From Candidatus Saccharimonadota bacterium (GTDB lineage: Bacteria > Patescibacteriota > Gracilibacteria > BD1-5 > UBA6164): a stretch of DNA of 32,000 nucleotides. The notes beneath the pieces are model-generated. The model searched no databases. It was not told the DNA's origin and saw nothing but the letters and a program-made list of their open reading frames with translations. The position numbers were made by a program, and so were the translations under genes. Shown piece by piece: positions 336 to 25,413 of the stretch (positions within the stretch are counted from its first letter, which is position 1; every line of letters begins with the position of its first letter). The DNA lies in the NCBI GenBank assembly GCA_965227835.1, contig OZ245768.1, positions 360,001 to 392,000 of the forward strand, written 5' to 3'.

Positions 336-1445
336 ATGACAAGTAAAGAATTAATAAACTATGTCCTTGATTATTCATCAAAAAAGAAATATCCAGATAT
401 ACATATAAATACCAATAAAAAAATAAAAATTAGAAATGAATCAGGTTTTATAGTAGATTTGGATAAAATAGAAGTAGAATCCAAAGAAGTTTCAATTCCA
501 GAAATAAATCTAGAAACTGTTAAATCCATAATAAAAGTTTTAGTTTGAGAAGACTGATATGAAAAATTTCAAACAAATAAAGAACTAGATTCTTCATATG
601 TAATAAATTCATGAGAAAGATTTAGAGTGAACTGCTATATTGATTCTGCTTGATATTCCATAGCTCTTAGAATAATACCAAATAAAATACCAGATTTAGA
701 CGAACTTGGTTTATGAGATCAAATAAAAAAAATGTGTGATTCTCAAAAAGGTTTGATTTTAGTTACTTGACCCACTTGATCTGGTAAATCTACAAACTTA
801 GCCTCAATGATAGACTATATAAACAAAACCCAAAATAAACATATTATCACAATAGAAGATCCAGTTGAATTTTCTTTCAAAGATAATAAATCTTTAATAA
901 ACCAAAGAGAAGTTTGAAATCATACAAAAAGTTTTGCCAATGCAATTAGAGCAAGTCTTAGAGAAGATCCAGATGTAATAATGATATGAGAAATGAGAGA
1001 TCCAGAAACCATAAAAGCAGCTATAACCCTAGCCGAAACGGGACATTTAGTACTATCTACTCTTCATACAAATGATTCTGTTCAAACTGTTGATAGAATA
1101 GTTGATGTCTTCCCTGAATCTTCACAAAAACAAATAAGAATGCAACTTGCTATGAGTTTATCATGAATAATTTCACAAAGATTAGTATCTAGGAAAGACA
1201 AAGAAGGTAGAATTGCAGCTAGAGAAATACTTATAACAAATGATGCTGTAAAAAATTTGATAATTTCAGGAAAAACTCATCAACTCTATTCAGTTTTGGA
1301 AGTTTCTAAAGCCGAATGAATGGTTCTTATGGATAAATATTTAATTGCTCTTTTCAAAAAAGAAATTATAAGCAAAGATTCTTTGATTTCATATTCCAGA
1401 GATAAAGAAGCTATAGAAATGATGTTTAAAGATAACCTTGGCTAG
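336..1445 (+). CDS. pilT: Type IV pilus retraction ATPase PilT
   Basis: 369 aa with TGA=Gly. Walker A GPTGSGKST at 768-794, with both non-GGN glycines encoded by TGA (768, 777). Also [24 protein letters not shown] and RIAAREILI motifs typical of PilT. TAG stop at 1443-1445. Confidence 0.95.
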
Positions 1446-1466
1446 ATATTTTTAATAAATACAATT

Positions 1467-2309
1467 ATGATTGATATAAATTTTTTCAAAAATTCCTGAT
1501 TCTTTGAAAAAAAGACTCTAAAAAAATGAGAGTATCTTTTTTGCGAATGAGAAGTGGATGAAAATATATATATAATAATAACTTGAGAACTTTTAATTGA
1601 AAAATTTACTAATCAAAATAAAGATGAAGCAAAAGTTTTAGCTAGTTTGAAAAAAGATGATGTTTTTTGAGAAGCAAGTCTCAACAACAACTTACCCAAA
1701 CAAGTAAGTATAAAAGCCAATAAAAAAACAGATATAATATATATAAATGCAATTTCGGGATTAAGGGATTTTTCTTCTAAATACCCAAATGAATCTTTTG
1801 ATTTATTAAAATATATAATACATTTATCAAATAATAGATTAAATGAATCAAATTCTTTGATAACAGCAAGTTACAAAATTAGTTCACTTATATCAAATAT
1901 AAATGATTTTAGTTTTAAAACTATTTTTCAATTAATTGAGGAAACAAAAATATTAACAGGTGTAAAAGATATAATATTTCTTGAAGAAAACCAAGTATTA
2001 AAAGAATATCTTACTATAAAATATAATACAAGCCAGCCTTGATTAATGCAAGATCAAATAATAAAGATAACTGATAATAAACTTGATTTACTAGAATTAA
2101 AAAGTTCCTGAGAATATATTTACATACAAAATATAAAAGTTTGAAATAAAAATTATTGATATTTAGTTTTTTTAAGAAAATGAAATGATTTTTCAGAAAA
2201 TGAAATAAAAATTATTTCTGTTTTGGGAGTTTCTTTTTCAAGTATAATCAAACAAAAAGAATTCATAGAAGAACAAAGAAACAAAGATTATATAAAAAAC
2301 AGAGTCTAA
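1467..2309 (+). CDS. Cyclic-nucleotide-binding domain protein with uncharacterised C-terminal domain
   Basis: 280 aa. The N-terminus (...GEYLFCEGEVDENIYIIITGELLIEK...DDVFGEASL...) matches the cNMP-binding beta-barrel pattern (FGE). Uninterrupted only if TGA is sense. TAA stop at 2307-2309. Confidence 0.6.
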
Positions 2310-2327
2310 CTAGACTCTGTTTTTTTG
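2299..2327 (+). terminator. Rho-independent terminator
   Basis: 9-bp stem acagagtct (2299-2307) pairs with agactctgt (2312-2320), then tttttttg. The stem overlaps the stop codon of the preceding gene. Confidence 0.75.
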
Positions 2328-2335
2328 TATTTCAG

Positions 2336-2588
2336 CAGAAAGCTTTAGCCTTCTGTTGTTTCTATATATTTCAAGTTATTAGTGTCAAAGAACTAGAACT
2401 CTCTGTTGATAAGAAAATTATAAGCTACTATCAAAATGCTAAATATTTCTGTTGAAACCAGCGAATTTCTTATGATATAAAAATTAGTAATATTTGATAA
2501 TGAATATATCTGTTTTCAGAGAGCTAAAGCTCTCTGTTGAAAGAACAAAATTTCTTACTGACAAAAGGCTAAAGCCTTCTGTTGAAAC
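2336..2588. repeat. Array of five ~27-nt hairpin-forming repeats in a convergent intergenic region
   Basis: Copies at 2336-2362, 2386-2412, 2432-2458, 2517-2543 and 2562-2588. Consensus caRaRRgctaaagcYYtctgttgaaaN. Copy 4 is a perfect hairpin, cagagagc-taaa-gctctctg. Copy 5 (caaaaggc-taaa-gccttctg) differs from it by two covarying base pairs. Confidence 0.7.
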
Positions 2589-2617
2589 GAAAATTAGTAT
2601 TATACTACAATTAGAAA

Positions 2618-4054
2618 TTAACTATTCTTAAATCTCCTCCTTATAAATATTATTATAAAACCTAAAATCAAGGATAATATAAGCATTATTATTGTTTCTG
2701 TTGGTCAAGTTTGTATTTCTGTAGCTTGTGATAAGTTTCAATGTATAACTTCTCAAGAATTTGTTTCTGTTTTTGCTTTTACTGCAAAATATTGATATTT
2801 TATTTCATCTCATGTAATCTCTATTTCAAATTTAGGTTCAACTACATTTGTTACAAATTCAAATTTACCTGTCTCCTCATTACTTTTAAGTACATCATAA
2901 CTTTTTGCATCTTCTAGCTTGTCCCAAGTTAATATAGATTTATTTTTAAGTTTTACCAATTTTAATCCTCATATTTCTAAATTAGGTTCTTCTTCCTCTT
3001 CAACTTCTTCAACTTCTTCAACTTCTTCAACTTCTGGTTTCTCTTCTGGAGGTGCAGCTTTCAGCTCAACTAAAAATACTTTTATCTCTGCTACATCTTT
3101 TTCAGTAACACTATGTCAAAGATCATCAACCAAAATTACATCCATACCAAATTTTTTCTCTTCACTTGGAGCTTTGAAACTTCAAGTATAAACACCATCT
3201 TCTGTCTCAGAAAGAGATATTACACCATCATTAAATAAAATTTTAACCGATTTAAGTCATTTGTTTGCAAATACTTTTATATCTATATTAGTATTTTCCT
3301 CTACCTCTCAATTCTCAGGCAGTGGAGATAAAACTATTTTTTTAAATCTTGGTTTACTATCATCTATATTTACTATTATATCACTTGATTCTCATATTAT
3401 ATTTTCATCAGAATCTAGCACAACTGCCTTTATTGTATTTTTTCATGTTACAAATCAATCTATATCTTTTTCAAATATTCAATCTGAGTTTGAAGTAGTA
3501 TTAAATACTTCCGTATTGTTTAAAGTTATTCTTACAGCATGGTTTCTTTTTGTAGCTCAAGACACTTTTACATCACTTTTACCTAAAGTCATATCTGATT
3601 CTGGACTTAATATTTCAATTTCAACTCTATCTTCTTTACTATTTCATTGTGCTGAAGCTATTACATTTACTTTTCATTTTCAAGTTACATTTTCATAATC
3701 ATTAGCATCATATAAACTTATACTTTGCTCTCAAACCGTGTTAAATTTTATTCAGTTTTCAAATTTTTTAATTCATCCATCAGATAAAGTGAAACTATAT
3801 CAATCATCATCTGCAAGTTCAGCGGGTAGTTCTACTTTATCATCTGTTTCAGAAAACCCAAATACATTACCAGTATAATCACTAACAACCTCATCATTCT
3901 TATCTAAAGCTGTTATTGTCAAATCAAGTGCTTCTCATACTCAAATAGACTCTGTGTTAAACTCTATTTTGAAATAATCTATCTCTCAAGCTTGAACACT
4001 ACTTGTATAAAAAAATACTAAAAGCAGTAGCAAATATTTTAATAAATTTTTCAT
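2618..4054 (-). CDS. Secreted/surface protein with Ig-like/FN3-like repeats and a C-terminal membrane anchor
   Basis: 478 aa on the minus strand with TGA=Gly. Signal peptide MKNLLKYLLLLLVFFYTSSVQA, beta-rich repeats, acidic PEVEEVEEVEEVEEEEEP linker, and C-terminal ...TGPTETIIMLILSLILGFIIIFIRRRFKNS (TM helix plus basic tail). The + strand Ser-rich ORFs here are its antisense. Confidence 0.6.
2998..3033. repeat. 9-bp tandem repeat (cttcaactt x4) encoding the (EEV)n linker of the surface protein
   Basis: Four direct head-to-tail copies visible at 2998-3033. Confidence 0.8.
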
Positions 4055-4201
4055 AAGCTGTTATTTTTGAAATTATATTATCACTAATTTATTTTCTTTA
4101 TAAATCAAAATAATTGTGAATTTATAAGTGCAATTCTATAGTTTTTAACAAAAAACACCAAACTATTTTTGAAAAACTAATTTACTATATATTTTTTTGT
4201 T

Positions 4202-5272
4202 TTATAAGTTAACTACATTAAATTCTTTTCAAAAATCATTTTTAATAGAACTTATAAATGTCTGGTATCAATCTATACTTCCTATAATCATATTTTTATG
4301 TTTTTCATCTAATTCACTTATTAAATCATCCAAAAGTAGTATAGGTTTTTTGTTTCTATATTTTTCCACAAACTTTATTTCCAAAAGTTTAAGTCATATT
4401 ATTACAGATTTTACTTCTCATCTACTTGCAAATTTTACCAATTCTAAATCATCAACCAATATTTCAAAATCGTCTATATGGGGTCATATACTTGTATTTC
4501 AAGATAATATATCTTTATTTATATTTTCTTCTAAATAATATATTATCTGCTTTTCTATATCTTCTAACTTCTCTTTTTTATCTTGTTTTTTTATTTCTAT
4601 TTTTGTCTTATAAATAAATTCAAAACTGCTTATCTTCTCTTCAAAATATTTTGTAAAATTTTTTGTATTTTCTCTTATAAAATCTATTATTCAAAACCTA
4701 TAATTATATATTATAGAAGCTTTTTTTGCCAGTTTCTCATTCCAAAAATTTGTTTCACTTTTAGATGATTTATTTTCTCTTATATTTTTCAATATCTTAT
4801 TTCTTGATATAAGTATTTTTTTGTATTCACTTAATATTTCTTTGTAATCTCTAAAAGTTCAAGATAAAATTTCATCTAAAAATTCTCTTCTAAGACTAGG
4901 GGACAGATACATAATATTCATAAGCATTGGAGAAAAATGTATTGTTGAGCTTACTTCTTCTAATAGTTTTTTTTTGGTGGTAGCTTTTTTATCAAATATA
5001 TATTTCTTCTTTTTATCTTTTTTGTCATAAGATATAGCTATTTTTGATCACTTATTATCTTCTGTCTCTATAAAAAAAATATCTTTATCTTTGTTTACTA
5101 GATTTTCAAAATCTAGTTTTGATAGTTTTTTTCAATGTATTATACTTATAGCTTCAAGTATATTTGTCTTTCATTTTCAGTTTTCACCAATTATAACATT
5201 AAATTTTTCATCAAAAAAAAACTCACTATCTTGAAAGTTTCTAAAGTTTTTTAATTTAATATTTTTTATCAT
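4202..5272 (-). CDS. recF: DNA replication and repair protein RecF
   Basis: 356 aa. MIKNIKLKNFRNF..., Walker A GENGKGKTNILEAI with TGA-encoded Gly. C-terminal GPHIDDF, ASRGEVKS signature and LLLDDLISELD Walker B. Confidence 0.9.
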
Positions 5273-5303
5273 GATTTGTGTTCCAAAAGTTAGTTTCGGA
5301 TTT

Positions 5304-5591
5304 TTACTTCATTATATTTGATATAGCTATTTGGTCAGATATAATTTCTTCTTCGCTACATTCTAAAAGCTCTTTTCTATTTATTTTATCCTGGCTTATC
5401 TCATCTTCTCTTAGTTTATTTTCTTTTGATATAACACAATATGTAGGTTCTACATCTTTTGTATCTATTTCATCTATTAGCTTGAAATAATCTAATATAT
5501 CATTTAAATCTTTTTCTATTTGCATACCTTGTGTATCTATCTTGCTTAAGTTTTTTGATATTTTTTTTATTTGTTCTTGTGTTAGTGTCAT
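5304..5591 (-). CDS. gatC: Asp/Glu-tRNA amidotransferase subunit C
   Basis: 95-aa ORF that is also intact in the standard code. MTLTQEQIKKISKNL...ILDYFKLIDEIDTKDVEPT...KLREDE matches the GatC pattern. TAA stop. Confidence 0.8.
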   Translation of the reverse strand: MTLTQEQIKKISKNLSKIDTQGMQIEKDLNDILDYFKLIDEIDTKDVEPTYCVISKENKLREDEISQDKINRKELLECSEEEIISDQIAISNIMK

Positions 5592-6101: not shown

Positions 6102-6662
6102 ATGTTTAAATATATTTTATTTTTTTTAACTCTTTTTCTTGTAAGTTCTTGCTTTTTTTGAGGTTGAAATGATTCTGAATGAACTTTAAAAAAAGATTTT
6201 TCATCAAAAGATTTTTCAATAATGCTTCCTTCTTCTTGGGAAATAATTGAAAATAAAGATTCTATTTTACCTAAACCTGCTAACTGAGAAATAGTTTTGG
6301 CTATATCTTCAAATACCCTAAGAGATAATTTTTATAGAAATATGCTTATTTTAAGTCAGGAAATAAAAACAGATATTTCTTCTGCTAGTTTTATAAAATG
6401 AAATTATACTGCTTCTATAAAAGACTATTTTTATAAAAAACTTATAGATGATAAAGACTTTTCTATAGACGATAAAGATACAAAAATTTATCATTTTGAG
6501 GCTAGATACTCTGAAGATACACCTATAGTTAATTTTCTACAAACTTGAATTGTTTGTTGAGAAAAGGCATTTTTGATAACTATAGCTCTTGAAAAAAATA
6601 ATAAAAATATTTATAGATATGAAGATCTTTTATCTACATTTTCTTGTATTAATCAAGAGTAA
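6102..6662 (+). CDS. Lipoprotein, unknown function
   Basis: 186 aa. Signal peptide MFKYILFFLTLFLVSSC with a lipobox-like VSSC, followed by GGGND. Confidence 0.6.
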
Positions 6663-6799
6663 TTAAAATGGTTATCTTTTGGTAATATAAATTTATACAA
6701 TATTATTTACAAAAAACTAGGGAGTTTTAAAACTTTTGTTTGATTTTTTAAAATCAATTTATATAGTTTTTCAGTATTATTTTTAAAAATTAAAAAACT

Positions 6800-7372
6800 A
6801 TGTCCATGGAGTCATTTTTAAAAGAAGTTGTAAAATGAGATAAATTTGAACTTTTAATTGATACTAAAATTTTTAGTAAAGATGTTGTTTTGAAATCAGC
6901 TTATGTTTTTTTGGATAAGGGTTATTTTTTCTTTAAGACTGATTGAGAAAATATTTTACTTCAATTCACTTCTAGGGATAAATCATCTGATAAACCAGAA
7001 GATGTAATAGCTGATTTTTCTGATTGTTTGCTTGAAACTGTTTTGAGAGATAAACTTGAAAAAGATAACAAAACTATAAGGGAAACAATAGTTGAAAAAG
7101 CCATAAATTGACCTCTTGATGCTAGTAATTTTGTGAGTTTGGATACTGACAATATTGCTAATAATAGTGAACAGAATCAAGTTGATTTTGATAAGGATAT
7201 AGATGAAATTTTAAAAGAGATAGAAAATGATCCAGATTTGAAAATAGATGAGGAAGAGATAGAAAAGATATTGAAAGAAATAGAAGAAGAAACAGAAAGT
7301 GAAGTTCAAAAACCGAAACTTACTTTGGATCCTGATGCTATCAAGAAAGCTAAAAAAGATTTTAAGAAATAA
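6800..7372 (+). CDS. hxsD: HxsD-like protein with long acidic C-terminal extension
   Basis: 190 aa. The N-terminal ~110 aa contain ...DFSDCLLETVLRDKLEKDNKTIRETIVEKA, resembling the LLNDYxLRE signature I recall for TIGR03976 (HxsD). The C-terminal half is D/E/K-rich with a duplicated I-x-x-ILKEIE motif. Confidence 0.5.
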
Positions 7373-7394
7373 CTTATTAAAATATTTTAATATT

Positions 7395-7589
7395 ATGGAG
7401 AAAAGTTTTGAAATAGATTCAAATATTTATAGTTCAAGTTCTATAAAGCAAGCCATATCTGATTTTGAAGATATTGCTCTTTTATCTTTTAAATGATGAA
7501 AACTGTCTATTTCTTGAGAAGATGATTCTTCCGTGCAGGAAGTATTTAATGAGTTTATGAATTATGTTATTTGATTGAGTGTTGAGTAA
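7395..7589 (+). CDS. Small HxsD-like protein (second copy)
   Basis: 64 aa: MEKSFEIDSNIYSSSSIKQAISDFEDIALLSFKGGKLSISGEDDSSVQEVFNEFMNYVIGLSVE. Same N-terminal pattern as the upstream gene and an F-N-E-F-x-N-Y tail. Lies directly before the hxsB region. Confidence 0.4.
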
Positions 7590-7592
7590 ACT

Positions 7593-7859
7593 ATGAATCC
7601 AAGAATAAGTGATTTTTTTTGAATAAAAATAAATATGTATTATGGTGATCATAATCCACCTCATTTCCATGTTAAATATAATGAATATTCTGCTTTTATT
7701 TCTATAGAAAATCCTAAAATACTTGAATGAAACTTACCTATTAAAATTGAAAATCTTGTTATATCTTGGGCTGAACTTTATGAAAAAGAATTATTTGAAA
7801 ATTGGGAACTCGCTTTAAATAAAAAACCTTTGAAGCCTATATTACCATTTATAAAATAA
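7593..7859 (+). CDS. DUF4160 family protein
   Basis: 88 aa. The GIKINMYYGDHNPPHFHVKYNEY motif is the DUF4160 hallmark. Confidence 0.75.
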
Positions 7860-7860
7860 T

Positions 7861-8106
7861 ATGATACATACTGTTAAAAGTGCTATTAGAATAAAATGAA
7901 CTTATAAACTTAGCCTGGAGTTTGAAAATGGGGAAGAAAGAATTTTTGACTTCAAGCAATATGTTTGAGGTAATAATTTTATTTTTTGACCCTTAAAAGA
8001 TTCAGATACTTTTGATCTATTTAAGGTTGAGAATTGAACTGTCGTTTGGGAAACTTGAGCAGACTTCAATCCTAATTTATTGTATAAAAATTCACTAAGC
8101 AAATAA
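7861..8106 (+). CDS. DUF2442 family protein
   Basis: 81 aa. ...YKLSLEFENGEERIFDFKQY...VENGTVVWETGADFNPNLLY is typical of DUF2442, the usual partner of DUF4160. Confidence 0.7.
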
Positions 8107-8108
8107 TT

Positions 8109-9575
8109 ATGTTAAACTTAGAAAAAATTAAAAAAGCTGACACTAGTCAAATTTGATTTTTTAGATTTAAGAAATTTGATTCTGAAAGATACTTAATTAC
8201 AAATGATGCCTGAAAATTTCATTTCTTAAATTTAGAGGATTTTGATACTTTTGTGAGTTGAAAAAATTTAGATAGTTTATCTTGTTATGATGACCTATCT
8301 AAAAAATGATTTATCAAAACAGAAGACTATGAAGCTAAAATGACTGGTAGTGTAGCACTTAAAAATCATTTTGTGTGAGTTTGACCTACCTTGCATATGA
8401 TAGTTACAACTCTTAGATGTAATCACAAATGTAAATATTGTCATGCCGCTGTAGCTCCTATGTCTGCTAAAGAGTTTGATATGAGTCAGGAAACTGCAAA
8501 AAAAGTGGTTGATACTATTTTTTATACTAATTCTCCTAGTTTGACTATTGAATTTCAATGATGAGAATCTTTGGTAAACTATGATGTGGTAAAATTTATA
8601 GTTGAATATTCCAAACAAAGAGCTTTTCATTTAAAGAAAGATTTATCTTTGGTTATGGTTTCAAATCTTACCTTGATGACAGAAGAAAAACTTAAATGGC
8701 TTTTAGATGAAGGTGTAGATATATGTACTAGTCTTGATTGAGATGAAATAACACACAATAATAATAGAACTTGATTTGAATGAAATAGTTTTGAAAAAGT
8801 TACTTATTGGATGAAGAGACTTGGTGAAGAAAAAGAAAAGAGATGAATGTGAAATGTATGAGCACTTCTTACAGTTACAAGAGAAACAATGCCTAGATAT
8901 AAAGAAATTATTGATGCTTATGTTTCTATAGGTTTAGATTGAATATTTTTAAGATGGCTTAACCCTTATGGTTTTGCAGCAGCTCAGACTAAAGAGCTTT
9001 CCTACGAAGATCATGAATGGATAGAATTTTATAAAAAGTCCCTTGATTACATAATGGAGTTGAATAAAAAATGAACATTTTTCTCTGAAAGTATTACAAG
9101 AATTTATTTAGCAAAGATTTTTAATTCTAGAGATCCTGCATTTATGGATATTAGATCACCAAGTTGAATAGGTATAGGTTGAGTAGCCTACAATTATGAT
9201 GGAAAAATTTATGCTTCAGATGAATCTAGGATGCTTGGTAGGATGTGAGATGATGCCTTTTTGATGAGTGAATGATTATGAACCCCTGAAGAAAATTATA
9301 GAGAAATGATAAATAGTGATACTTGTAAAGCTTCTATACAATCATCTACACTAGATTGATTACCTGGTTATAATGAACATGTTTATAAACCTTATATTGG
9401 TGTTGATATAATACATAATTATAAAACCACAGGAAGTTTGTTTTATCCTATTATGAAAGATGAAAAAATAAAATTCCAAACAGAGATTCTTGATTATATA
9501 TTTAAAAAATTAGAAGACCCACAAGAAGAAAAAATACTTATGAGTTGGCTTGTTTGAAAGGAAGAAGTGATTTAG
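8109..9575 (+). CDS. hxsB: His-Xaa-Ser system radical SAM maturase HxsB-like
   Basis: 488 aa. ~100-aa N-terminal domain, then CNHKCKYC (codons at 8418-8441), FQGGESL (GG = TGA TGA), and a long C-terminal domain. Size and architecture fit HxsB (TIGR03978), with HxsD-like and HxsA-like genes in the same locus. Confidence 0.7.
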
Positions 9576-9641
9576 AATGATATAATGTAATAGATTAAAA
9601 TCTATTTCTACTTTGCTGTTAAATATAAAAACTGAAATTTT

Positions 9642-10085
9642 ATGATAATAAAAGAAGAATTTGAAATTAAAATTAATAATTTAAGTAAAGCTCTAGATTC
9701 ATTGAAAGAGTCAATTATTTTAGAGAAGAAGAATACTGAAAAAAATATTTTTTCTATATTTAGGGATTCGGCAATTCAAAGATTTGAATATACTTATGAA
9801 TTATCTTGGAAATTTATGAAATATATATTAGAAAAATATGATAAAGAAATAGAAACTAGAAGTCCCAGACAAACCCTTAAAACAGCATTTAGAGTAGGTT
9901 ATATTGATAATTTAAATCTTTGGTTTAACATTTCTGAATATAGGAATAAAACAAGTCATGAATATGAACAAGATATTGCAGATGAATTATTTGATAATAT
10001 ACCAGAATTTCTTGAAGAGATACAAAAATTTTATGAGTCTATAAAAATTAAGTATGATGGATGATATTTTGAGACAAATAAATAA
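9642..10085 (+). CDS. HI0074-type nucleotidyltransferase substrate-binding (HEPN-like) protein
   Basis: The track ORF (140 aa) extends 7 codons through TGA to TAA at 10083. RDSAIQRFEYTYELSWKFMK...RNKTSHEY matches the HI0074/TIGR01987 pattern. Confidence 0.75.
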
Positions 10086-10341
10086 AGTTTTAAGTAAACA
10101 TTTAGATAAGAATAAATATAAATTCTTTCTATATGGCTCTAGAGCTAAATGAAATTTCTTCTTTAGATCTGATTATGATATTTGAGTATTAGGTGACTCT
10201 AAAATAGATTTGAAAATAAAGTATAAAATAGAAGATGATTTTGAGAATATACCAGCTTTAATAGATTTTACAGATTTTGCCAGTGTTTCTGATGATTTTA
10301 AGAGATTAGCAATGAAGGATGTTTTGCGGTTGAATAAATAA
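10054..10341 (+). CDS. Minimal nucleotidyltransferase (MNT) partner
   Basis: 95 aa. FLYGSRAKGNFFFRSDYDIGV is the GS-x(n)-D-x-D nucleotidyltransferase motif. Overlaps the upstream HEPN-like gene. Confidence 0.75.
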
Positions 10342-10359
10342 ATTTTTAAATGATTTATT

Positions 10360-10653
10360 ATGTCTAATAAAAAAACTTTATATTTTCCTATTACCATAAA
10401 TGAAGAAGATGGTATTTATTGGTGAGAAGCTAAATTTTTTGATGGTTGTTTTTCTCAATGAAATAGTTTGGATGATTACTGAAACAATATGACCCAAGCA
10501 ATATCTTCCTATAGTGAATCTATAAAAGATTGAAGTTTTGATATGCCTAATACTGGAATTTTATGAATTAATCTTGATGATTATGGGAAAATTAAAGATA
10601 GTGTCTTGAAAAGAATTGATAAAAATTCTTACAAAGCATTGAGCTCTGGTTAA
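10360..10653 (+). CDS. hicB: HicB-like antitoxin (UPF0150 fold)
   Basis: 97 aa. ...YFPITINEEDGIYWGEAKFFDGCFSQGNSLDD... matches the HicB N-terminal domain pattern. Confidence 0.6.
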
Positions 10654-10807
10654 AAAATGAAAATGAAATCACTTTAAAGTTAGATTTAACAATAAAAATT
10701 CCATTATACCTGTACATGGAGGTAGAAATTTACCTATTTGACTTTTAAAAGCTATTTTTAACCAACTAGATATTGATAAAGATTTGGATATATTTAAGGA
10801 TTTTTAA
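10622..10807 (+). pseudogene. hicA: HicA-like toxin lacking an ATG start (truncated or non-canonical start)
   Basis: The frame reads KILTKHGALVKKGKGNHFKVRFNNKNSIIPVHGGRNLPIGLLKAIFNQLDI..., a HicA pattern (G-x-H ... IP-x-H ... L-x-x-G-x-L). The frame opens just after a TAA at 10619 and has no ATG. It overlaps the hicB 3' end. Confidence 0.5.
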
Positions 10808-10817
10808 ATGATTTATT

Positions 10818-11069
10818 ATGCTTGATAGAAAGAATTTAATATATAGGAACAAAGAGCTTTTTTGGGATATATCTGATTTTAATAAACTTGGAGATGAAGC
10901 TTTAGAAGAAAGATTTTTAATGTATTGAGATTGGAAAAATATTTTAGATTTAATAGATATTTTTGGATATGAAAAATTTAGAAATATTTATTTAAAATTA
11001 AAAAATAAATCTAGGTGTAGTTTAAATAAAAAGACTATTAATTTTTTTAATCTTTACTTGAATGTATAG
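10818..11069 (+). CDS. Small protein, putative cognate antitoxin of the downstream AbiEii-like gene
   Basis: 83 aa. ...KELFWDISDFNKLGDEALEERFLMYGDWKNILDLIDIFGYEKF... Its stop overlaps the next gene's start. Confidence 0.4.
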
Positions 11070-11675
11070 GGATCTTTTATATGATAATCAGTTTGAAGTA
11101 ATTTTAATTTTGAGCTTATTTTCTAGAGATTTTTATTTAGCTTGATGAACTGCTATAGCTTTGCAATTATGACATAGGAAGAGTTTAGATTTTGATTTGT
11201 TTTCATATAAAAAAATAGATAATAATTCTATCGTTAATAAAATAAAAAATGGTTGATATGAAATTGAGAGAATTTTAATTGATAATAAAAGGAAGAGCTT
11301 ACAGTGATTATTAAATGAGTTAAAATTACCTTCTTATATTATCCTTTTAAAATAAATCTTGAAAATAAATTTGAACAGATTAGTATTCCAAATATAATGA
11401 CTCTATGAACGATGAAATTTTATACACTTTGAAGAAGATGAAAATGGAAAAATTATGTTGATTTGTATTTTATACTAAATAGTTGATATAAATTTTGAGA
11501 TATATCTAGTTTAGCACAAGATATATTTGCTTGAGGCTATAATGAAAAACTTTTAAGAGAGCAACTTTGCTATTTTGAAGATATTGATTATAATGAAGAA
11601 GTTGAATTTATTGAAGAAAGAGTAGATAATAAAGATATAGAGAAGTATTTGATTTCTGTTTCTTGTAGTTCTTAA
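11062..11675 (+). pseudogene. AbiEii/DUF1814-type nucleotidyltransferase toxin, frameshifted
   Basis: Frame A (11062-11355): ...FYLAGGTAIALQLGHRKSLDFDLFS..., the AbiEii N-terminal motif. The family-typical continuation GVKITFLYYPF...MTLGTMKFYTLGRRGKWKNYVDLYFIL...LCYFEDIDYNEE is in another frame that opens at 11289 and ends at TAA 11673-11675. A 1-nt indel lies near the A-run at ~11287. Confidence 0.6.
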
Positions 11676-11695
11676 GAATTTATTTGAGATTTGAT

Positions 11696-11989
11696 ATGAG
11701 ATTATATAAATGACAATATAATTTACTTCAATCTTTAGCAAAAACTATTAACTGAGATTTGTATTTGTTTTGAAGTAGGGTTTATGACAATAAAAAAGGC
11801 TGAGATATAGATATTTTGATTATAAATAAATCTGATAAAGATAATTTAAAATTATCTCTTGAGGTTGAAAGAGAATTTTTTAAATGTTACGAGCAAAAAA
11901 TTGATGTTGTTGTTTTTAATGAAAATATGACGAGAGAGCAAAGACTATTTTTTGATAGTATTAAGAAGCAAAAAATATGACAGATTTAG
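11696..11989 (+). CDS. Minimal nucleotidyltransferase (MNT), second pair
   Basis: 97 aa. LYLFGSRVYDNKKGGDIDILI motif. Overlaps the downstream HEPN gene. Confidence 0.7.
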
Positions 11990-12402
11990 AAAGAGTTTAT
12001 TATGAACAAGTTTTGAAAGCTTATACTCTATATAATGCTAGTTTAAAACACTTGTCTTCTCTTGAAATAGAAAAATTGGAAACACCGGAAGATTTAGAAG
12101 TTCTTGATGCATTTTTTTCTAGATTTGAAAGGCTTATAGAGTTGATTTTAAGTAAATTTTCTAAAACAGTTGAGATAAAAGAATTTTGAATTAGTGAATG
12201 AACTCTTAGGGATAGATTATCTTTGATGGAAAAGAAATGATACATTAGAGATTTAGATTTATGGTTTGATATGAGATGAGTAAGAAATAAAATAGCTCAT
12301 GAATATGTGAATAATTGACTCAAAGATATGTATATTTTCATAATTAATAATTATGATGAAGAGATTAAATTTTTTGTATCTAAAATAAAAAATATTTTTT
12401 AA
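11977..12402 (+). CDS. HEPN/DUF86-like protein, second pair
   Basis: 141 aa with TGA=Gly. ...WFDMRGVRNKIAHEY... carries the R-x(4)-H HEPN motif. Confidence 0.65.
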
Positions 12403-12418
12403 ATTTTAATATTATTTC

Positions 12419-12859
12419 ATGTCTGATAAAAAAAAGAAAATTTTTCCAAAATTAAAGAAAAAGTTAAAATGATTTCTTACTGATGAGAGTGGTAAGATTA
12501 GTAAAAAAGATGCTCTTGGTTTAGCTGCTGGTGCTGCTTTGCTGGGTAGTGTTGGTGAGGTTGCCGCTCATAGTAGTTGACATGGTAGTTGACATGCAAA
12601 TTGAAAAAATCGTCGTGACAGTAGCCAAGATCATCACTGAAGTGCAGTTTGACATGGTAATGCTTCCTGTTCTGTAAATCATGCAAGTTGAATAGTAAAT
12701 TGACATTATAGTTGAACTCCGAATGCCACTGTTGTGTGAGACTCTTGACATTGAAGTGCTTCAGGATCAAATGCAAATGGTCATGGAAGTCATGGAAGTC
12801 ATGGAAGTCATGGAAGTCATGGAAGTCATGGAAGTCATGGAAGTCATGGACAGTGGTAA
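12419..12859 (+). CDS. hxsA: His-Xaa-Ser repeat precursor protein HxsA-like
   Basis: 146 aa: MSDKKKKIFPKLKKKLKGFLTDESGKISKKDALGLAAGAALLGSVGEVAA-HSSGHGSGHANGKNRRDSSQDHHGSAVGHGNASCSVNHASGIVNGHYSGTPNATVVGDSGHGSASGSNANG-(HGS)x7-HGQW. Basic leader, hydrophobic segment, then degenerate and finally perfect H-x-S repeats. 11 in-frame TGA codons. Confidence 0.75.
12782..12850 (+). repeat. Perfect 9-bp tandem repeat catggaagt x7 (plus partial copy) encoding (His-Gly-Ser)n
   Basis: Direct reading. Units start at 12782, 12791, 12800, 12809, 12818, 12827 and 12836, with partial catgga at 12845-12850. Confidence 0.95.
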
Positions 12860-12890
12860 ATAAATATTTATTGTTTAATATAATTTCTAA

Positions 12891-13580
12891 ATGAGATATT
12901 TATTAATTGTTATTTTTGTAGTTAGTGTTTTATTAAACATATATCTTTTTTTAAGTGTTCATTATAATAGTACTTCTAAAAAAGCTGAACTATCTACTGA
13001 GCCTTCCTATAATAGTTGAGCAATAGAATTAGGATTTGTCGAAACTAATTTATCAACAAATGAGACTTCTCTAAATTGTGATTCTATGTTAGATTGATCT
13101 ATTGAATTGGAAGATATAAGAAATGAAAATATATCAAATTTATATGATTCTTATAAAGATATTTTAAATGTTATAAAATATATTTGAGAAGAATGAAATG
13201 ACTATGAAAAATTATTTAATCTTAAAAAAGGAAATTGTGATTTTTATGACACAAAATCTGAATATGATATATGTATTGATATTAGAAATAAAAAAGATAA
13301 CTTTATTGCAAGAGATATTTCAGATTATGATAAAGCCATACTTACTTCAATTAGTTCATCTGAAAATAATTGTTCAACTCTAAAAGATAATAATGACATT
13401 GAGGATTGTAATCTAACTTTTGAAAATTTTAATAATTTTCATCTTTTGGAGAATCCTGAAAATATTTTTTTGGCTAGCGACATTCAAATCTGAAAACTGT
13501 ATTCAGATTATTGAAAAAATAAACTCATTGAACAATTGAATACAGATTTTGTTTCTAAATGTAAATTTTATATGAAATAA
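12891..13580 (+). CDS. Membrane-anchored protein with scattered Cys, unknown function
   Basis: 229 aa. N-terminal anchor MRYLLIVIFVVSVLLNIYLFL, then an Asn/Asp-rich domain with 7 Cys. Open only with TGA=Gly. Confidence 0.5.
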
Positions 13581-13670
13581 ATGTTAATAATTATTATTAA
13601 TGTTATATAAAACTAGTATGTTGTTTTTTTCTCATTTTTATCTCAAATCTTTTATTTTATACCTAAAACT

Positions 13671-15009
13671 ATGAATTATACCTTGTCAGATAGAAATTTT
13701 TTGTCTAGTACATTTAATAATTTTAGATTTATTAGATTGTTGAGAATTGAAACTAAAGACTTTGAATTAGTTGACAGTGATAGAATAATAAGTGGATACA
13801 AGGATTGTATTGAAAATAATAATAGAATTGATTTATATATTCATATTCCATTATTGTTATAAAGAATGTTCTTTTTGTTATCATAGAATGGATCAATATA
13901 GAGGTAAGGAATTAATGGATTCTTATATAGACTTGTTAGAACAACAAATGAAAAACTTGTTCATCTTTTATTGAAAGATATATATAACTTCTTTATGGTT
14001 ATGATGATGAACTCCAACAGTAATGACAGAACAACAAACAATCCGACTATTTAATATTATTGATAAATACTTTATTAGAAATCCAAAATACATCTCAACC
14101 ATAGAATGACATCCTAATTCCCTTTCAAAGTCTAAAATAGATATATTAAGTCAATTTTGAATATCTATGATATCTATTCCCTTACAAACACTTAATGAAA
14201 ATTCATTAAAAATGAACAATAGATACTCCTCCTCTTATATTTATCAAGCTCAGGAAATGATAAACTACTCCATTAGAAAAAAATTTACAGAAGTATCTTC
14301 AGATATGATTGTTTGATTGGAATGAACTAATTTAAAATATGATATAAAAACATTCAATTTTTTAATGAATCTATGAGTGGATTGTATAGTAATCTTTCCA
14401 TATCAATTGAGTACAAAAAATCATAGATTTAGTAATACCGAATTTATAAAATTTAATAAAAATATAGAAGAAAGAATTAATTCATTGTTATTATACATAA
14501 GAAGATATACTGTATACAATATATTCAATCATGCAAAATATTGTAATGCTATATATGTGACTAAAAATTTATATTTAGGTGATAAAAAGTATCATACATT
14601 TTATTATAGATCCAAAAAAAGTCTAATATGATTAGGAGCATATGCTTTATGACATACATATAAAAAAAATTATTATAATTGTGATCTTGAAGATTATGTT
14701 AATAATAAAGGCAAATACAAATTATATAAACTATCTGATAATGAAGATATTTTATATTATATTTTAATGAATTTTGATAACTACTGATTTATAAACACTA
14801 AAGTATGTAATGAAATATTTTCTGTTGATATATTTAAAGCATTCAAAACACTCTCTTATCTTTTATCAAAGGAAGTAATTTACTTGAAGTGAAATTATAT
14901 ATATTTAAATGATTCTATGAGTAGAGACAAGATATTTCTTTATTTCTTAAAAATGATAAAGATAGAATTTCCTAATTTATATTGTCAATATGGTATCAAC
15001 AACATTTAA
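13671..15009 (+). CDS. HemN-like radical SAM protein, apparent +1 frameshift at ~13851 (intact from ATG 13792 in the downstream frame)
   Basis: Frame 1 (13671-13862) ends ...NRIDLYIHIPLLL*. The next frame reads ...YCYKECSFCYH...LWLGGGTPTV...IEGHPNS...ISIPLQTL...VGLEGTN..., ending at TAA 15007-15009. Skipping one base gives LYIHIP-YCYKECSFCYH, the canonical HemN-family motif. Confidence 0.7.
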
Positions 15010-15949
15010 AGAAGTATTTATAGAGCTAACTGACAAGTGTAATTTATCATGTGATTACTGTCATAAATATTGATGAAATAGCTTTATAGAAATAAAACTA
15101 TTTGAGAAAATTATTTCTCAAATAGTTAATAATCACCTTTCAAAAATTGATTTTTTGTGTATTTGGTGATGAGAACCTTTTTTGCATCCTAAAATTGAAA
15201 ATATATTTCAAATACTATCCAAATACTTCCAATACGTTCAAAAAGATTTCAAAATAGTTATTAATACAAATTGAATTTTATTGAAAAATAATATTCAAAG
15301 GATAAAAAAACTCGCTCAAAATTTAGATAATATAAATTTTGTGTTGTATGTTTCTCTTGACTGATATTGAATAAATTGAAATATTTATAGGAAAATAAAT
15401 CACAGAGAATATAAAATTATTTTAGAAAATATAGATAACATTTTATTAATTAATAGCCATAACTTGTCATTACAAATTAGTTCAGTTTTAAATTTTCAAA
15501 AATGAGTTTATAATATATCTGACTTTATAAATTTTTGGAATTTAAAATGAGTTTCAATAAATTTCTGCTTTCAAGAAATGTTGTATTGAAAGAATAAAAA
15601 ATTAAACAAAGGTTTATTGCTAAATATATTAACTAAAGCACTTTTCCTCTATAAAAATTGATATAATATTGTTATAGAAAATAGTTTAAATATGAATAAT
15701 GTTATTAGAATTGATGTTTTTTGAAATGTTTATAATTTTTTTGATAAAAGTTTCTTTGAGAAAAATAATTATAAATTTCTATTGTCTAAAAATTGAGATT
15801 TAGATTTTTTAAACCAAGGTAATTGGGAGTTAGAAATTGAAAATGATTATATTTGGTCTATTATATATAGAGACAAAAATTATTTGAAAATAATAAATTT
15901 ATTTTACAGTTTGTACTTGAAAAATAAGACAATTTCATGAATGGATTAG
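14990..15949 (+). CDS. Radical SAM protein
   Basis: 319 aa. IELTDKCNLSCDYCH near the N-terminus, then CIWGGEPFLHP (GG = TGA TGA). Overlaps the upstream gene by 20 nt. Confidence 0.7.
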
Positions 15950-16023: not shown

Positions 16024-17403
16024 ATGGATAGTTTAAATAAAGATTACTGGAATACCTTTGCTTTCATAGCTGATAATACAACCGAATGAGAAGTCTTTCC
16101 ACCAGAAGACTTATTTAAAAGCTGTTCTAAAAATGATATTTTTTCTCTAATAAAGAATTATGTAGATAGTTGAAACTATAATAAGAAACCATATTTATCT
16201 TTATATTTTAATTTTCCATATTGTAACGAAAGATGTAGTTACTGTTGCTTAGCTAGTATTTGATTAAACAATAAATCAAAAATAGAAAAATATATTCTAG
16301 AATTGATAAGTGATATAAAAGCTGTATGAAGAATCTTAAAATTAAATCCTCAAATAAAAATTGATATATTATTTTTTTCTTGATGAACTTTTACTATTAT
16401 TGACGATTTTTTATTTGAATTATTCCTGAAGACCATAAAAGATAATTTTCAATTTAAAGATAATTATACATATGAAATGGAATTACATCCTGCTACAACT
16501 ACAGAAAATAAAGTTAATATAATGAAAAAGTACTGAGTAAATACTGTAATGTTATGAATACAATCATTAGATGAGTTAGTTTTGAAAAATTCTAACAGAA
16601 TTCAAACAAATAAACAAGTATTTAATGCAGTTAATCTAATTAGAAAATTCAACTTCAAAACTCTTAATGTAGACATAATCGCTTGATTGCCCTTTGAAAA
16701 AATTAGTACTTTTGTCAATAACCTAAAAATCATAATTACTAAAATTAATCCCGATATTATACATATGTATCCATTTTCACCAACAGATAATACATTGTTT
16801 ACAAAAATGTGACATAAGTTTACATCAGAACAGATAATAAATAGAGATAAAATGTTTTTATTATGAGAAAAATTAATTAAATCTTTTGATTATATAAAGT
16901 CAGATTGATATGTAAAAGTTTGAAAAGAAGTAAATAGCATATGGTGAATGAAATGCTATAAAGATATGTCCGTAATATCTTTTTGATATCCCCTTGATAT
17001 TCAATGATATCTTGAATGAGTATGATGTTATACCTCTCGGTATAATAGTAGCTATGCTATATATACTTATAAAAGTAAAGATATTATTTTGAGAAGAGAA
17101 TTATTTAGACTAACTTGGCTTTGAAAAGATATAAATTTAGCACATTTAAACAATAAATTCTGAATAGATGTTTTAAAGTATTTAAGTAGTGAATTTAGAG
17201 TTTTATTTGATAGTAATATCATTAATTTTAAATGAAGTGAAATTATTAGTTTTAATACTAGATATGTTTGGGAAAAAACTATATGTAGATGGATTTTTTT
17301 ACCTAAAAATTTATTAAAGGAGTTTTTACTTAAAAATAAAATTAATCATAATATTAATTATATAGATAAATTTAGGAAAAAATTATGAGAATATTATAAA
17401 TAA
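16024..17403 (+). CDS. HemN-like radical SAM protein (paralog of the 13671 gene)
   Basis: 459 aa. LYFNFPYCNERCSYC, FFSGGTFT, MELHPATT, MLGIQSLDE and DIIAGLPFE fit the HemN/coproporphyrinogen-III-oxidase-like family layout. Confidence 0.75.
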
Positions 17404-17414
17404 TTTATATAATT

Positions 17415-18344
17415 ATGAAACATATAGAATTAAATATATGACTTGCTTGTAACCATAAATGCATCTTTTGTATGTCGGGTATTGCAAGATGAAAAATTTT
17501 GTGATTTGAAAATGTATCTAATTTAAAACATGAAATAGATACATTATCTTCTAAATGATATGATTCTATATGATTTTTATGATGAGAACCTACTATACAC
17601 CCAGGTTTTTTGGAATTAGTATCCTATGCTAAACAAAAGGGCTTTATTAATATTGAAGTTATAACAAATTGATCAAAATTTCATAATAAGAAAATCTTGT
17701 TAGAATGTGTTAAGTCAGGATTAACAAGAATATCTTTATCAATTCATTCTCTTGATTATAAGAAAGAATCTATTTTATTATGAGGTATAGATAATGCTTT
17801 AGATCAAAAAATAGAGTCAGTAAAGAATATAGTTTATATATATAATAAATGATTATTAAAAAAAGAGCTATCTATAAATATTGTTGTAACTAAAAAAAAC
17901 TATAAAGATATCTATAAATTAATATTATATCTTTATAAGTTTTGAGTTAATTCTTTTAGGCTTAATTTTGTTCAACTTGAATGATATTCAACACAAAACT
18001 ATAATTTAATAGCAATAAAATATGAGAATTTTAAGAAATATCTATTAGATATAATATCACTAAGTAAAAAATATTTAGATTTAAGAGTAAATTTTGAAGC
18101 TATACCTTGGTGTTTTAGTTGATTGAATTATAAAGATTATTTAATATATTCAGAACAATCTATCGATAGGGAAAAAGATAAAATATCTAGAGACGATATA
18201 GATTTTAAATCTAGAAATATTATAAATCAACTTGATAGAAGAAAAGAATTGAAGTGATATATAAAAAAATGTAATATGTGTTTTTTGAAATCAAATTGTG
18301 AAGGAATTTGGAAAAGATATTTAGAATATTTTAATATTAACTAA
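17415..18344 (+). CDS. Radical SAM protein with C-terminal Cys-rich (SPASM/twitch-like) tail
   Basis: 309 aa. NIGLACNHKCIFC, GFLGGEPTIHP (17571-17591, three Gly by TGA), and C-terminal KKCNMCFLKSNCEGIW. Confidence 0.75.
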
Positions 18345-18350
18345 ATTATT

Positions 18351-19274
18351 ATGAATATTTCATGCGCATCAAATTTAGACGATGTATTTATAAAAAAAAT
18401 ATCTGATAATATAAATGAAAAAAAATTAGAATTCTTCTTATCTTTTCCTAGTGATAAATTCTCATTGAATAGACATTTTATTCCCAATATAAATTATGTT
18501 GACTTTAAGAAACATATACATTTAATAATATCCAGTTGATATAAAGTAAATTATTTACTAAACTCTTTACTTATAAATGATTATGATTTATTGATAAAAA
18601 AAATCTCAGATTTAACAAATATCTGAATAGATACCTTTACGGTTTCAGATTTAAAGGTTATTGAATTTTTAAATAAAAAATTTCCCCAAATTAATATTGT
18701 ATTATCTATTATTTATTGACTAAAATATACAGAAGATATTTATAAACTTTTAAAAAAATATAGTATTTCTAGATTTATTTTTGATCAATCTTTAAATCAT
18801 AATTTCAGGGGTTTAATAAATTTGACAAAAGAATGTAAAAAAAATTGAATAGAAACAGAAATTTTAGTTAATGAATTATGTTTTACTGATTGTAAATATA
18901 GAAAACAACATTATAATTTAGATTCTAAATATAGCAAAATTGATTTTAATTTAAAATCTAAACTATGAGATTATTGTAATGATGAAAGAAAATCAAATAA
19001 CATAATTTTAGACTCTCCTTGGATTAGACCTGAAGATATTGAAATATATGAAAAAATATGAATTGACTATATAAAAATATCGTGAAGAAACTCGTGAACA
19101 GATGTCTTATTTAATTGCTTGGATTCTTATATAAATAAAAATTATATTTGAAATTTTTTTGATTTAATGGATTTAGATTGAAAAAGAGATGATAAAACTT
19201 GAAGATCAGAAACAAGGTATTATGATAATAAAAGATTAAACTCAGTTTTATTATCTAAAATTAAAAAATTATAA
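18351..19274 (+). CDS. Peptidase U32 family-like protein
   Basis: 307 aa. ...SPWIRPEDIEIYEKIGIDYIKISGRNSG... resembles the U32 (PrtC/YhbU-type) core motif ending in K-I-x-G-R. Has Cys pairs (LCFTDC, DYC). No CxxxCxxC. Confidence 0.45.
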
Positions 19275-22065: not shown

Positions 22066-22088
22066 AAGAAAAATATATTAGTATAAAA

Positions 22089-25409: not shown

Positions 25410-25413
25410 TAAA

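Follow-up and report, generated by a model that had tools for sequence, protein, structure and literature searches.

A divergent HXS-type radical-SAM locus with a strain-variable tailoring block in a Gracilibacteria genome

We analysed a stretch of 32,000 nucleotides of contig OZ245768.1 (positions 360,001 to 392,000 of the forward strand; assembly GCA_965227835.1), from a bacterium deposited as Candidatus Saccharimonadota and placed in the Gracilibacteria by GTDB; this whole stretch is referred to below as the window. Our favoured reading, held with moderate confidence, is that the window carries the Gracilibacteria form of the His-Xaa-Ser (HXS) system, a radical S-adenosylmethionine (radical-SAM) pathway that would mature a secreted or surface-tethered His/Gly/Ser-rich repeat protein. 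The locus consists of a conserved core, hxsD-hxsD'-hxsB-hxsA, followed by a strain-variable tailoring block (Table 1). In sequence comparison, the clade is set apart by the loss of auxiliary cysteines from the HxsB maturase, by multiple N-terminally short HxsC-like paralogues, by a new architecture of the HxsA precursor and by a strain-level switch of the core peptide and its tailoring genes. The core of this strain is also interrupted by toxin-antitoxin (TA) modules; that interruption is real but minor, and the divergent architecture and the cassette-like replacement are the more interesting features.

The core genes and the radical-SAM genes were scored against NCBIfam with its curated cut-offs and the other genes against Pfam, and membership in HXS was judged after Haft & Basu 2011 and Li et al. 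2026. The products of hxsD, hxsD' and hxsB all score above the equivalog cut-offs of their families, that of hxsD' only just, and all core genes lie on the plus strand. This agrees with an earlier, sequence-only reading of the same DNA, which had proposed a co-directional Hxs-type locus with two HxsD-like genes and an HxsB-like gene; every gene named in it was recovered to the nucleotide under translation table 25. In the hxsD product, the HxsD domain occupies residues 20-103 and is joined to an acidic C-terminal extension that is kept in relatives, while the motif LLNDYxLRE is retained only in part, as LLETVLRD. HxsB has its CxxxCxxC motif at residues 104-111, and its next-best NCBIfam matches are the peptide maturases PapB, CcpM and SCIFF, at 78-98 bits. 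The auxiliary Fe-S cysteines of Klebsiella HxsB (C399, C402, C408 and C432) are replaced in the window by Y421, H424, I430 and I454. All four of the canonical sequences have these cysteines, and none of the 37 Gracilibacteria sequences does.

A scan of species-representative genomes for HxsB returned 38 loci, all but two of them labelled Gracilibacteria, Peribacteria or Patescibacteria. Genes in the relatives' loci were called with table 25 and labelled by BLASTP against the window proteins, and a Lachnospiraceae locus (L036) together with plasmid loci of Klebsiella, Nostoc and Sinorhizobium served as controls with the canonical order hxsD-hxsB-hxsC-hxsA (D-B-C-A). In the sister Gracilibacteria genomes, to which the sequence-only reading had pointed for a comparison of synteny, 34 loci include a full-length hxsB. 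Of these, 28 have hxsD-hxsD'-hxsB-hxsA as a contiguous unit free of TA genes; the remaining six have diverged or are cut off by the end of the contig. hxsD stands upstream of hxsB in 31 related loci, and hxsD' lies between the two in most Gracilibacteria loci. The locus often follows the ATP synthase operon in relatives, which points to vertical inheritance. As that operon precedes hxsD in many of them, the upstream context of the window, with its different neighbours (Table 1), seems to have been rearranged as well.

Reading these genes depends on the genetic code. The window has a G+C content of 22.9% and is unreadable with table 11, which gives 4 open reading frames (ORFs) of at least 100 amino acids; table 25 gives 44. 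In a codon-level alignment of 38 HxsB sequences, relatives show GGN in 264 cases and TGG in 9 at the columns with TGA in the window, and glycine positions of the standard-code Lachnospiraceae HxsB are aligned with TGA 248 times. This verifies that TGA encodes glycine and not tryptophan (code 25) in the lineage of the window, whose hxsB contains 23 such codons. The public hxsB record of this genome, P0001, was translated with table 4 (TGA as tryptophan) and reads W at all 23 of them, and because the alignment supports glycine, the proteome deposited for this genome probably has the wrong residue at every TGA. P0001 had appeared to be an HxsB relative with 95% identity; it is the window's own hxsB in table 4 and was set aside as holding no independent evidence.

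The hxsA precursor begins with a K-rich leader and signal region (12419-12568) that contains FLTDESGKISKKDALG and a hydrophobic stretch followed by V-A-A. Further on are a double-HxS motif, HASGIVNGHYS (12680-12712), a perfect run of seven copies of the 9-nt unit CATGGAAGT encoding (HGS)7 (12782-12844) and the C-terminal residues GQW. The predicted mature part has 96 residues, of which 17 are His (18%), 23 Gly and 21 Ser; with K+R of 3 and D+E of 3, it bears no net charge. No Pfam domain was found in the window HxsA, which therefore lacks a peptidoglycan-binding domain, whereas Klebsiella HxsA has PG_binding_1. The sequence-only reading had called this product an HxsA-like repeat precursor. 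Its HxS motifs and the fact that hxsA adjoins hxsB in about 25 related genomes speak for that name, but the product remains under every HxsA cut-off, with 29.3 bits for HxsA4 (cut-off 55), 28.0 bits for HxsA3 (cut-off 65) and no match to HxsA TIGR03979. Profile models, which the same reading had proposed as the arbiter, thus support its call for hxsB and withhold support for hxsA. The linkage to hxsB also speaks against its alternative, a repeat protein unconnected with radical-SAM genes in relatives.

A common plan emerges from 28 HxsA homologues. Their N-terminal ~50 residues follow the consensus kkK.FPKikKkLkgFLtDESGKItKKDALG and then a hydrophobic stretch ending in V/A-x-A, and this succession of K-rich N-region, ~18-residue hydrophobic stretch and V/A-x-A site is conserved at the sequence level across the set. 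After the leader come a variable HxS-rich region, the double motif, a tandem run and usually a terminal Trp. Under the strict pattern HxSG[IV][IV]NGHxS, the double motif occurs in 17 of the 28; 24 members have an (HxS)n tandem, 2 to 26 units long, and four have none, and the terminal Trp is present in 17. Mean pairwise identity of the leader is 60% in the leader alignment, and 58% by a second measure in which the core has 30%. A search of a 5.8-billion-protein collection gave 54 relatives of the precursor, all unnamed or 'hypothetical', the only organism given being Gracilibacteria. One relative, at locus L030, passes the HxsA4 cut-off with 60.9 bits against 55.

Some precursors depart from this plan. 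Three Gracilibacteria loci have extra hxsA-like genes (L012:11466-12386, L013:11466-12380 and L016:6556-7479) whose products carry, fused behind the leader and an HxS-rich region, a C-terminal Hint/intein-like domain of ~170 residues (C...FTYSQRVLTPNG ... VLVHN), with a weak NCBIfam match to the intein-containing RtcB model; their sequences suggest an autoprocessing variant of the precursor. One contig, CAYFPB010000001.1, carries two divergent hxsB loci ~17 kb apart (L031 and L033; 46% and 45% identity to the window), and the precursors encoded at them contain as many as 26 HxS units in a row, nearly all of them HGS, together with a (SC)n tail, and have no double-HxS motif. The gene for a 229-residue protein that follows hxsA in the window was considered as a further conserved Hxs component and rejected, an iterative profile search having given one homologue only, at L030.

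The clearest view of how the locus changes comes from a sister strain, L040, represented by an independent 8.7-kb ENA contig with the same hxsB-TA-hxsA arrangement. BLASTN aligns it with the window at 96.05% over 4,459 nt, from the start of hxsB (8107) to codon 48 of hxsA (12563), and the 144-nt hxsA leader shows 0 differences. Downstream of hxsA there is no DNA similarity between the two, except for 75% identity in the HGS region. At the amino-acid level, HxsB, leader and core are 99%, 98% and 42% identical between window and L040; the corresponding values are 99/100/91 and 90/96/86 in two other close pairs and 61/58/30 as the mean of 300 pairs. The L040 core resembles the allele of the far more distant L005 (67%), and its downstream genes resemble those of L019 (60%), not those of the window. 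From these comparisons, core peptide and tailoring block seem to have been exchanged jointly, with a breakpoint at the end of the conserved leader. No other indirect evidence ties the downstream enzymes to HxsA as strongly as this joint swap, which also suggests diversifying selection on an exposed product.

The window contains 11 radical-SAM genes (hxsB, six HxsC/HxsC4-like paralogues and four others), all with an intact CxxxCxxC. Six paralogues downstream of hxsA (starting at 17415, 19279, 20198, 24450, 29051 and 30413) score best with the HxsC4 or HxsC family, reaching 53-135 bits where the cut-offs are 500 bits for HxsC4 (NF038332) and 267.9 bits for HxsC (TIGR03977). The best TIGR03977 score in the 32-kb window is 94.6 bits, and no HxsC-like gene adjoins hxsB, so the impression from the sequence-only reading that no HxsC could be assigned by eye was right; the Lachnospiraceae control HxsC reaches 327.5 bits on the same model. 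Canonical HxsC proteins from four phyla are 31-37% identical to one another, and the window paralogues are 21-24% identical to them. Since CxxxCxxC begins at residue 12-27 in the paralogues, compared with 90-123 in canonical HxsC, the paralogues lack an N-terminal domain of 90-120 residues; from CxxxCxxC they align with canonical HxsC to the C-terminal CxxCx5C, which is kept in five of the six. Among the paralogues lies a U32-family gene whose weak NCBIfam matches are to UbiU and TrhP, O2-independent hydroxylases, and these matches hint at hydroxylation rather than proteolysis. The genes from 21112 to 26601 are tightly packed, with gaps of at most 74 nt, and two insertion sequence (IS) elements break into the radical-SAM cluster further on.

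The sequence-only reading held that no product or function was known for Hxs. This is out of date, as the canonical hxsD-hxsB-hxsC-hxsA locus is an antiphage system that keeps phage DNA from entering E. coli and gives protection from 110 of 113 phages (Li et al., Nat Commun 2026, PMC13128918). According to the same study, HxsA undergoes N-terminal processing, is modified by +8 Da on SHRSS and works in the periplasm, its peptidoglycan-binding domain being essential in E. coli; HxsC binds HxsD; and defence needs the HxsC motifs as well as the HxsB Fe-S motifs C98/C101 and C399/C402, with C399A/C402A abolishing it (PMC13128918). The survey in that work found HXS systems via HxsA homology, placed 99.7% of them in Pseudomonadota and found 99.6% ordered D-B-C-A (PMC13128918). 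Because Gracilibacteria precursors match no HxsA model, the whole clade was invisible to it.

Compared with this canonical system, the window has HxsB and HxsD orthologues above the curated cut-offs, a multi-HxS substrate (with export predicted) encoded downstream in the same direction, and a second type of radical-SAM enzyme with an HxsC-like catalytic core and the C-terminal CxxCx5C. It differs in having no HxsC orthologue, the paralogues being without the N-terminal domain, in lacking the four auxiliary-cluster cysteines of HxsB, and in the second HxsD-like gene of the Gracilibacteria core, after which 3 to 10 extra radical-SAM genes follow. The window HxsA has a conserved 50-residue leader, a terminal Trp and no peptidoglycan-binding domain, and its HGS repeats are non-basic, unlike the basic HRSHSS repeats of canonical HxsA. 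Gene order is D-D'-(TA)-B-(four TA)-A-tailoring in the window, D-D'-B-A-tailoring in relatives and D-B-C-A in canonical loci, and the Gracilibacteria form is lineage-wide and syntenic in a code-25 clade of the candidate phyla radiation, not sporadic in Pseudomonadota. The families closest to the precursor and to four of the six paralogues are HxsA3 (NF038309), HxsA4 (NF038313) and HxsC4, all uncharacterised. The window leader aligns with positions 2-76 of HxsA3 and the HGS...GQW C-terminus with the end of the HxsA4 model, so that the Gracilibacteria precursor, a 'hypothetical protein' in public records, has a leader like that of HxsA3 and a tail like that of HxsA4. Alignment of the paralogues with HxsC4 covers almost all of its 335 positions, and, like HxsC4, they have no N-terminal domain. 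All are nevertheless far under the respective cut-offs (HxsA3 28 against 65, HxsA4 29 against 55, HxsC4 83-135 against 500).

A tentative pathway can be drawn from these features. The K-rich part of the leader, about 30 residues (FLTDESGKITKKDALG) and as conserved as HxsB itself, would dock HxsA on HxsB, HxsD and HxsD' in the cytoplasm. HxsB, with its SAM cluster alone, could then modify the conserved double-HxS motif H-x-S-G-I-V-N-G-H-x-S, and the variable HxsC-like, HemN-like and PapB-like enzymes, together with the kinase-like and U32-family proteins, may have the variable HxS-rich core and the (HGS)n tail as their targets. Sec export and cleavage would be guided by the hydrophobic segment and the V/A-x-A site, and the product would act at the cell surface in an antagonistic interaction, with no need to bind peptidoglycan. 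By analogy with the characterised system, the HxsA product would most likely be a barrier to phage. Electrostatic capture of DNA is unlikely since mature HxsA is a neutral His/Gly/Ser protein and not a basic one; a metal-dependent or cross-link-dependent structure is more plausible.

Several points weigh against this interpretation. What is said here of the chemistry and expression of Hxs in Gracilibacteria is read from DNA and predicted protein sequences. HxsC and the second HxsB cluster, both needed canonically, are absent from the window, so the chemistry may differ, and HxsA is without the domain that is essential in E. coli. Judging from its three basic and three acidic residues, mature HxsA would not fit the DNA-binding model, which does not transfer. 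Cleavage of the signal peptide is itself a prediction, and the link of the downstream genes to hxsA is drawn from their co-location. In addition, the near-universal syntenic presence of the locus, often beside the ATP synthase operon, looks more like lineage housekeeping than a sporadic defence island.

The main rival explanation, which we regard as rather unlikely, is a cluster for a ribosomally synthesized and post-translationally modified peptide (RiPP), in which HxsA would be a leader-core precursor and its cross-linked His-rich core would be released as a diffusible metallophore, antimicrobial or predation factor. A conserved leader with a hypervariable core is what such a cluster would have, and the peptide maturases among the next-best matches of HxsB, the 11 radical-SAM genes with their kinase-like and U32-like tailoring genes, the uncharged mature part with 17 His in 96 residues, which suits metal binding, and the lack of an anchoring domain by Pfam all fit it. 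The radical-SAM/SPASM maturases of RiPP systems (PapB, CcpM, SCIFF/ScfB) likewise stand beside a leader-bearing precursor. Window HxsB, however, lacks SPASM/twitch cysteines, its substrate is a predicted secreted protein of 110-180 residues, and family scans of the 25-kb cluster found no dedicated leader peptidase or ABC exporter. The hydrophobic segment with V/A-x-A resembles a Sec signal, and the core, at 60 to 130 residues, is larger than is usual for a RiPP. The sole characterised relative is, moreover, a protein effector (PMC13128918). Maturation of an exported repeat protein remains the reading we prefer.

The block downstream could instead belong to an independent pathway, for a cofactor, a lipid or another peptide, that happens to lie beside a minimal hxsD-hxsD'-hxsB-hxsA unit needing no HxsC-type enzyme. 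None of the downstream enzymes passes an Hxs cut-off, a gap of 211 nt separates 13580 from 13792, and the block, although always radical-SAM-rich in relatives, is variable and differs greatly in composition between genomes. We consider this improbable. Over 35 loci, the density of radical-SAM genes per 10 kb is 4.1 on the downstream side of hxsB and 0.35 on the upstream side, a ~12-fold difference, and of the 19 loci for which 5 kb or more of downstream sequence is available, 18 have at least one HxsC-like gene. The six paralogues match HxsC4 or HxsC as their best families over full length, and core peptide and block were swapped together in L040.

The TA modules are the remaining peculiarity of the locus. 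As the sequence-only reading had described and Pfam confirms, the core is not contiguous: a DUF4160/DUF2442 pair lies between hxsD' and hxsB, 3 nt after the one and 2 nt before the other, and four TA modules occupy the 2,843-bp gap between hxsB and hxsA, all on the plus strand and with junctions of 1 to 66 nt in the inserted block. The feature is real, but as a mark of the system it falls away, being derived and confined to this strain and its near-identical sister: no locus of another species has homologues of the window TA genes within 10 kb, and the DUF4160/DUF2442 module is absent from all other loci. The independent L040 contig has the same order, so the arrangement is not an assembly artefact, and since it shares the four modules at 96% they are real and older than the strain split. 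L040 has a different small gene before hxsB, and this junction has therefore turned over separately. In all, five two-gene TA/addiction modules were acquired inside the core by the lineage of this strain. TA genes contain TGA-Gly codons, and hence come from code-25 organisms or their mobile elements.

In domain content and in their overlapping two-gene layout, the modules resemble known type II, IV and VII TA systems (HicAB, AbiE-like and HEPN-MNT); they differ in being nested in a biosynthetic operon with 2-20-nt junctions, in the recoding of TGA as glycine and in an inactivated AbiEii. The HEPN-MNT arrangement of type VII is represented, by domain content, by two adjacent pairs with all members above their Pfam cut-offs. 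Both pairs are common to L040, with ratios of nonsynonymous to synonymous substitution (dN/dS) of 0.10 and 0.25 in module 1 and of 0.15 and 0.14 in module 4. The hicBA unit (458 bp) lies between exact 21-nt direct repeats ATTTTTAAATGATTTATTATG at 10342-10362 and 10800-10820, for which 0.12 chance copies would be expected; this repeat may be the footprint of a cassette insertion or duplication. An integron-like cassette structure was considered and rejected, junctions of 1-66 nt being too short for attC and only one cassette being flanked by repeats. The start of hxsA (MSDKKKKIFP, 12404-12447) shares 70% identity over 44 nt with that of the hicB-like gene (MSNKKTLYFP, 10345-10388), possibly by chance in AT-rich DNA or as an insertion remnant at the 5' end of hxsA. 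The partner upstream of AbiEii is DUF6922-like and not AbiEi, so that no intact AbiE-type (type IV) pair is present, and the AbiEii family match is 26.2 bits on an N-terminal fragment. Aligned with L040, the window gene has lost 1 nt in an A-run near 11286 and is frameshifted, and the L040 gene (L040:3256-3885) has an independent nonsense codon, GAA to TAA, near its 3' end; broken independently in both strains, the toxin is decaying.

Could these modules be functional partners of Hxs in a defence island, cooperating with it or regulating it, for instance through internal promoters for hxsA? Co-transcription is likely, as the modules all run in the same direction with 2 to 66 nt between genes, and most TA genes have dN/dS of 0.10-0.33 against L040, from small counts. 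Defence genes tend to cluster, and canonical HXS is a defence system (PMC13128918). We give this proposal little credence, as none of the other Gracilibacteria Hxs loci examined has the modules, AbiEii is defective in the window as well as in L040 and the module before hxsB is not shared even with L040. PADLOC, whose 2023 library does not include HXS, returned for the window only a generic radical-SAM match (pVip) and marginal matches to AbiEii and PDC-S09. Promoter and terminator scans of 6500-14000 stayed at chance level: the sigma-70 scan gave 60 promoter-like sites with 57.4 expected, which is uninformative at 23% G+C, and the two weak terminator-like sites both fall within genes. From their sequences and distribution, we take the modules for selfish hitch-hikers in a probably co-transcribed array and not for pathway components. 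That the insertions have disabled the system and are turning it into an array of pseudogenes, as the 2.8 kb between maturase and precursor, the IS elements in the tailoring block and the frameshifted AbiEii might suggest, is very improbable; hxsB has evolved with a dN/dS of 0.04 (dS 0.168) since the split from L040, when the inserts were already in place, the leader is unchanged and all hxs ORFs and 11 radical-SAM motifs are intact, which argues for a functional, not a decaying, system.

A few observations lie beside this argument. A 9378-nt contig flagged as circular by the assembler (L028) has a 127-nt terminal overlap inside the hxsA leader; when closed, it has a complete 113-residue HxsA ORF and only D, D', B, A, three HxsC-like genes, one PapB-like gene and one methyltransferase-like gene. 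No replication or integrase gene was found on it. Tandem duplication, excision as a circle and an artefact of assembly are all conceivable origins of this contig, and leader-mediated recombination would fit it too. In the literature searched, we found no paper linking Gracilibacteria to Hxs or to radical-SAM clusters. A published Gracilibacteria 'hypervariable gene' (PMC6851277), checked as a candidate Hxs gene, encodes an unrelated PTD-repeat surface protein; the genome in that paper (L019) carries a D-D'-B-A locus. Rfam at the gathering threshold and a tRNA scan gave no matches in the window.

Table 1. Positions of the annotated features in the window, counted from its first nucleotide.
Feature	Position	Strand	Evidence or remark
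PilT-type ATPase; cNMP-binding protein	within 336-5591		upstream neighbours; names from translations only
478-aa surface protein, signal peptide and C-terminal anchor	within 336-5591	-	upstream neighbour; translation only
recF; gatC	within 336-5591	- (both)	upstream neighbours; translation only
hxsD, 190 aa	6800-7372	+	TIGR03976 58.5 bits (cut-off 50)
hxsD' (hxsD-like, second small protein), 64 aa	7395-7589	+	NF038315 HxsD_rel 41.2 bits (cut-off 41), borderline
DUF4160/DUF2442 module, putative TA pair	DUF4160 7593-7859; DUF2442 7861-8106	+	Pfam 72.5, 40.4 bits
hxsB, radical-SAM maturase, 488 aa	8109-9575	+	TIGR03978 486.2 bits (cut-off 370), model positions 3-466 of 466
TA module 1	HEPN-type NTase_sub_bind 9642-10085; MNT nucleotidyltransferase 10054-10341	+	Pfam 111.2, 40.6 bits
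TA module 2	HicB-like 10360-10653; HicA ~10583-10807	+	HicA_toxin 46.6 bits (cut-off 27); HicB_lk 19.4 bits, weak (cut-off 27)
TA module 3	DUF6922-like 10818-11069; AbiEii pseudogene 11062-11675 (two ORFs)	+	DUF6922 18.7 bits, weak
TA module 4	MNT 11696-11989; HEPN 11977-12402	+	Polbeta 30.0 bits; NTase_sub_bind 33.7 bits
hxsA-type precursor, 146 aa	12419-12859	+	13 H-x-S motifs; subthreshold HxsA3/HxsA4 matches
229-aa protein, N-terminal hydrophobic anchor	12891-13580	+	poorly conserved
HemN-like	13792-15009	+	subthreshold NCBIfam best match
MoaA/peptide-maturase-like	14990-15949	+	subthreshold NCBIfam best match
HemN-like	16024-17403	+	subthreshold NCBIfam best match
HxsC/HxsC4-like paralogues (three)	17415-18344; 19279-20187; 20198-21112	+	HxsC4 83-100 bits; HxsC 67-88 bits; Cys motif at residues 12-15
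U32-family (UbiU/TrhP-like) gene	18351-19274	+	U32 28.1 bits
PapB-like radical-SAM gene	21112-22065	+	family best match
Kinase-like genes (two)	22032-23018; 23012-23719	+	family matches
Genes without assigned family (two)	23695-24450; 25414-26601	+	ORF translations
HxsC4-like radical-SAM gene	24450-25409	+	family best match
IS256 Zn-variant transposase	26881-27657	+	NF048019 170.7 bits; in-frame TAA at 26962
IS481-like transposase	27634-28704	-	IS481 84 bits, below cut-off
HxsC/HxsC4-like radical-SAM genes (two)	29051-30319; 30413-31357	+	HxsC4 134.8, HxsC 94.6 bits, below cut-off

In this lineage three features essential in E. coli, namely HxsC, the second HxsB cluster and the peptidoglycan-binding domain, have been removed or replaced, yet the system is under strong purifying selection; it thus offers a natural experiment on minimal HxsB/HxsD chemistry. 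The TA inserts are a modest curiosity, in that addiction modules were able to settle in an operon without disabling it. We also put forward, tentatively and as a possibility that may well prove wrong, that this is a clade-wide, vertically inherited HXS derivative in which the hxsA leader is a fixed handle while the core is exchanged between strains as a single cassette together with the tailoring radical-SAM enzymes that match it, giving, with an HxsB free of its auxiliary cluster, a diversity-generating surface protein directed against phages or serving in contact with host or prey. The strain-level replacement of core and tailoring genes at the leader boundary suggests such a cassette-swapping diversification. 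For a cell that is reduced and symbiotic or predatory, eleven radical-SAM genes in ~25 kb of a 1.49-Mb genome are costly, and an investment of this size in a reduced genome points to an important function at the cell envelope.

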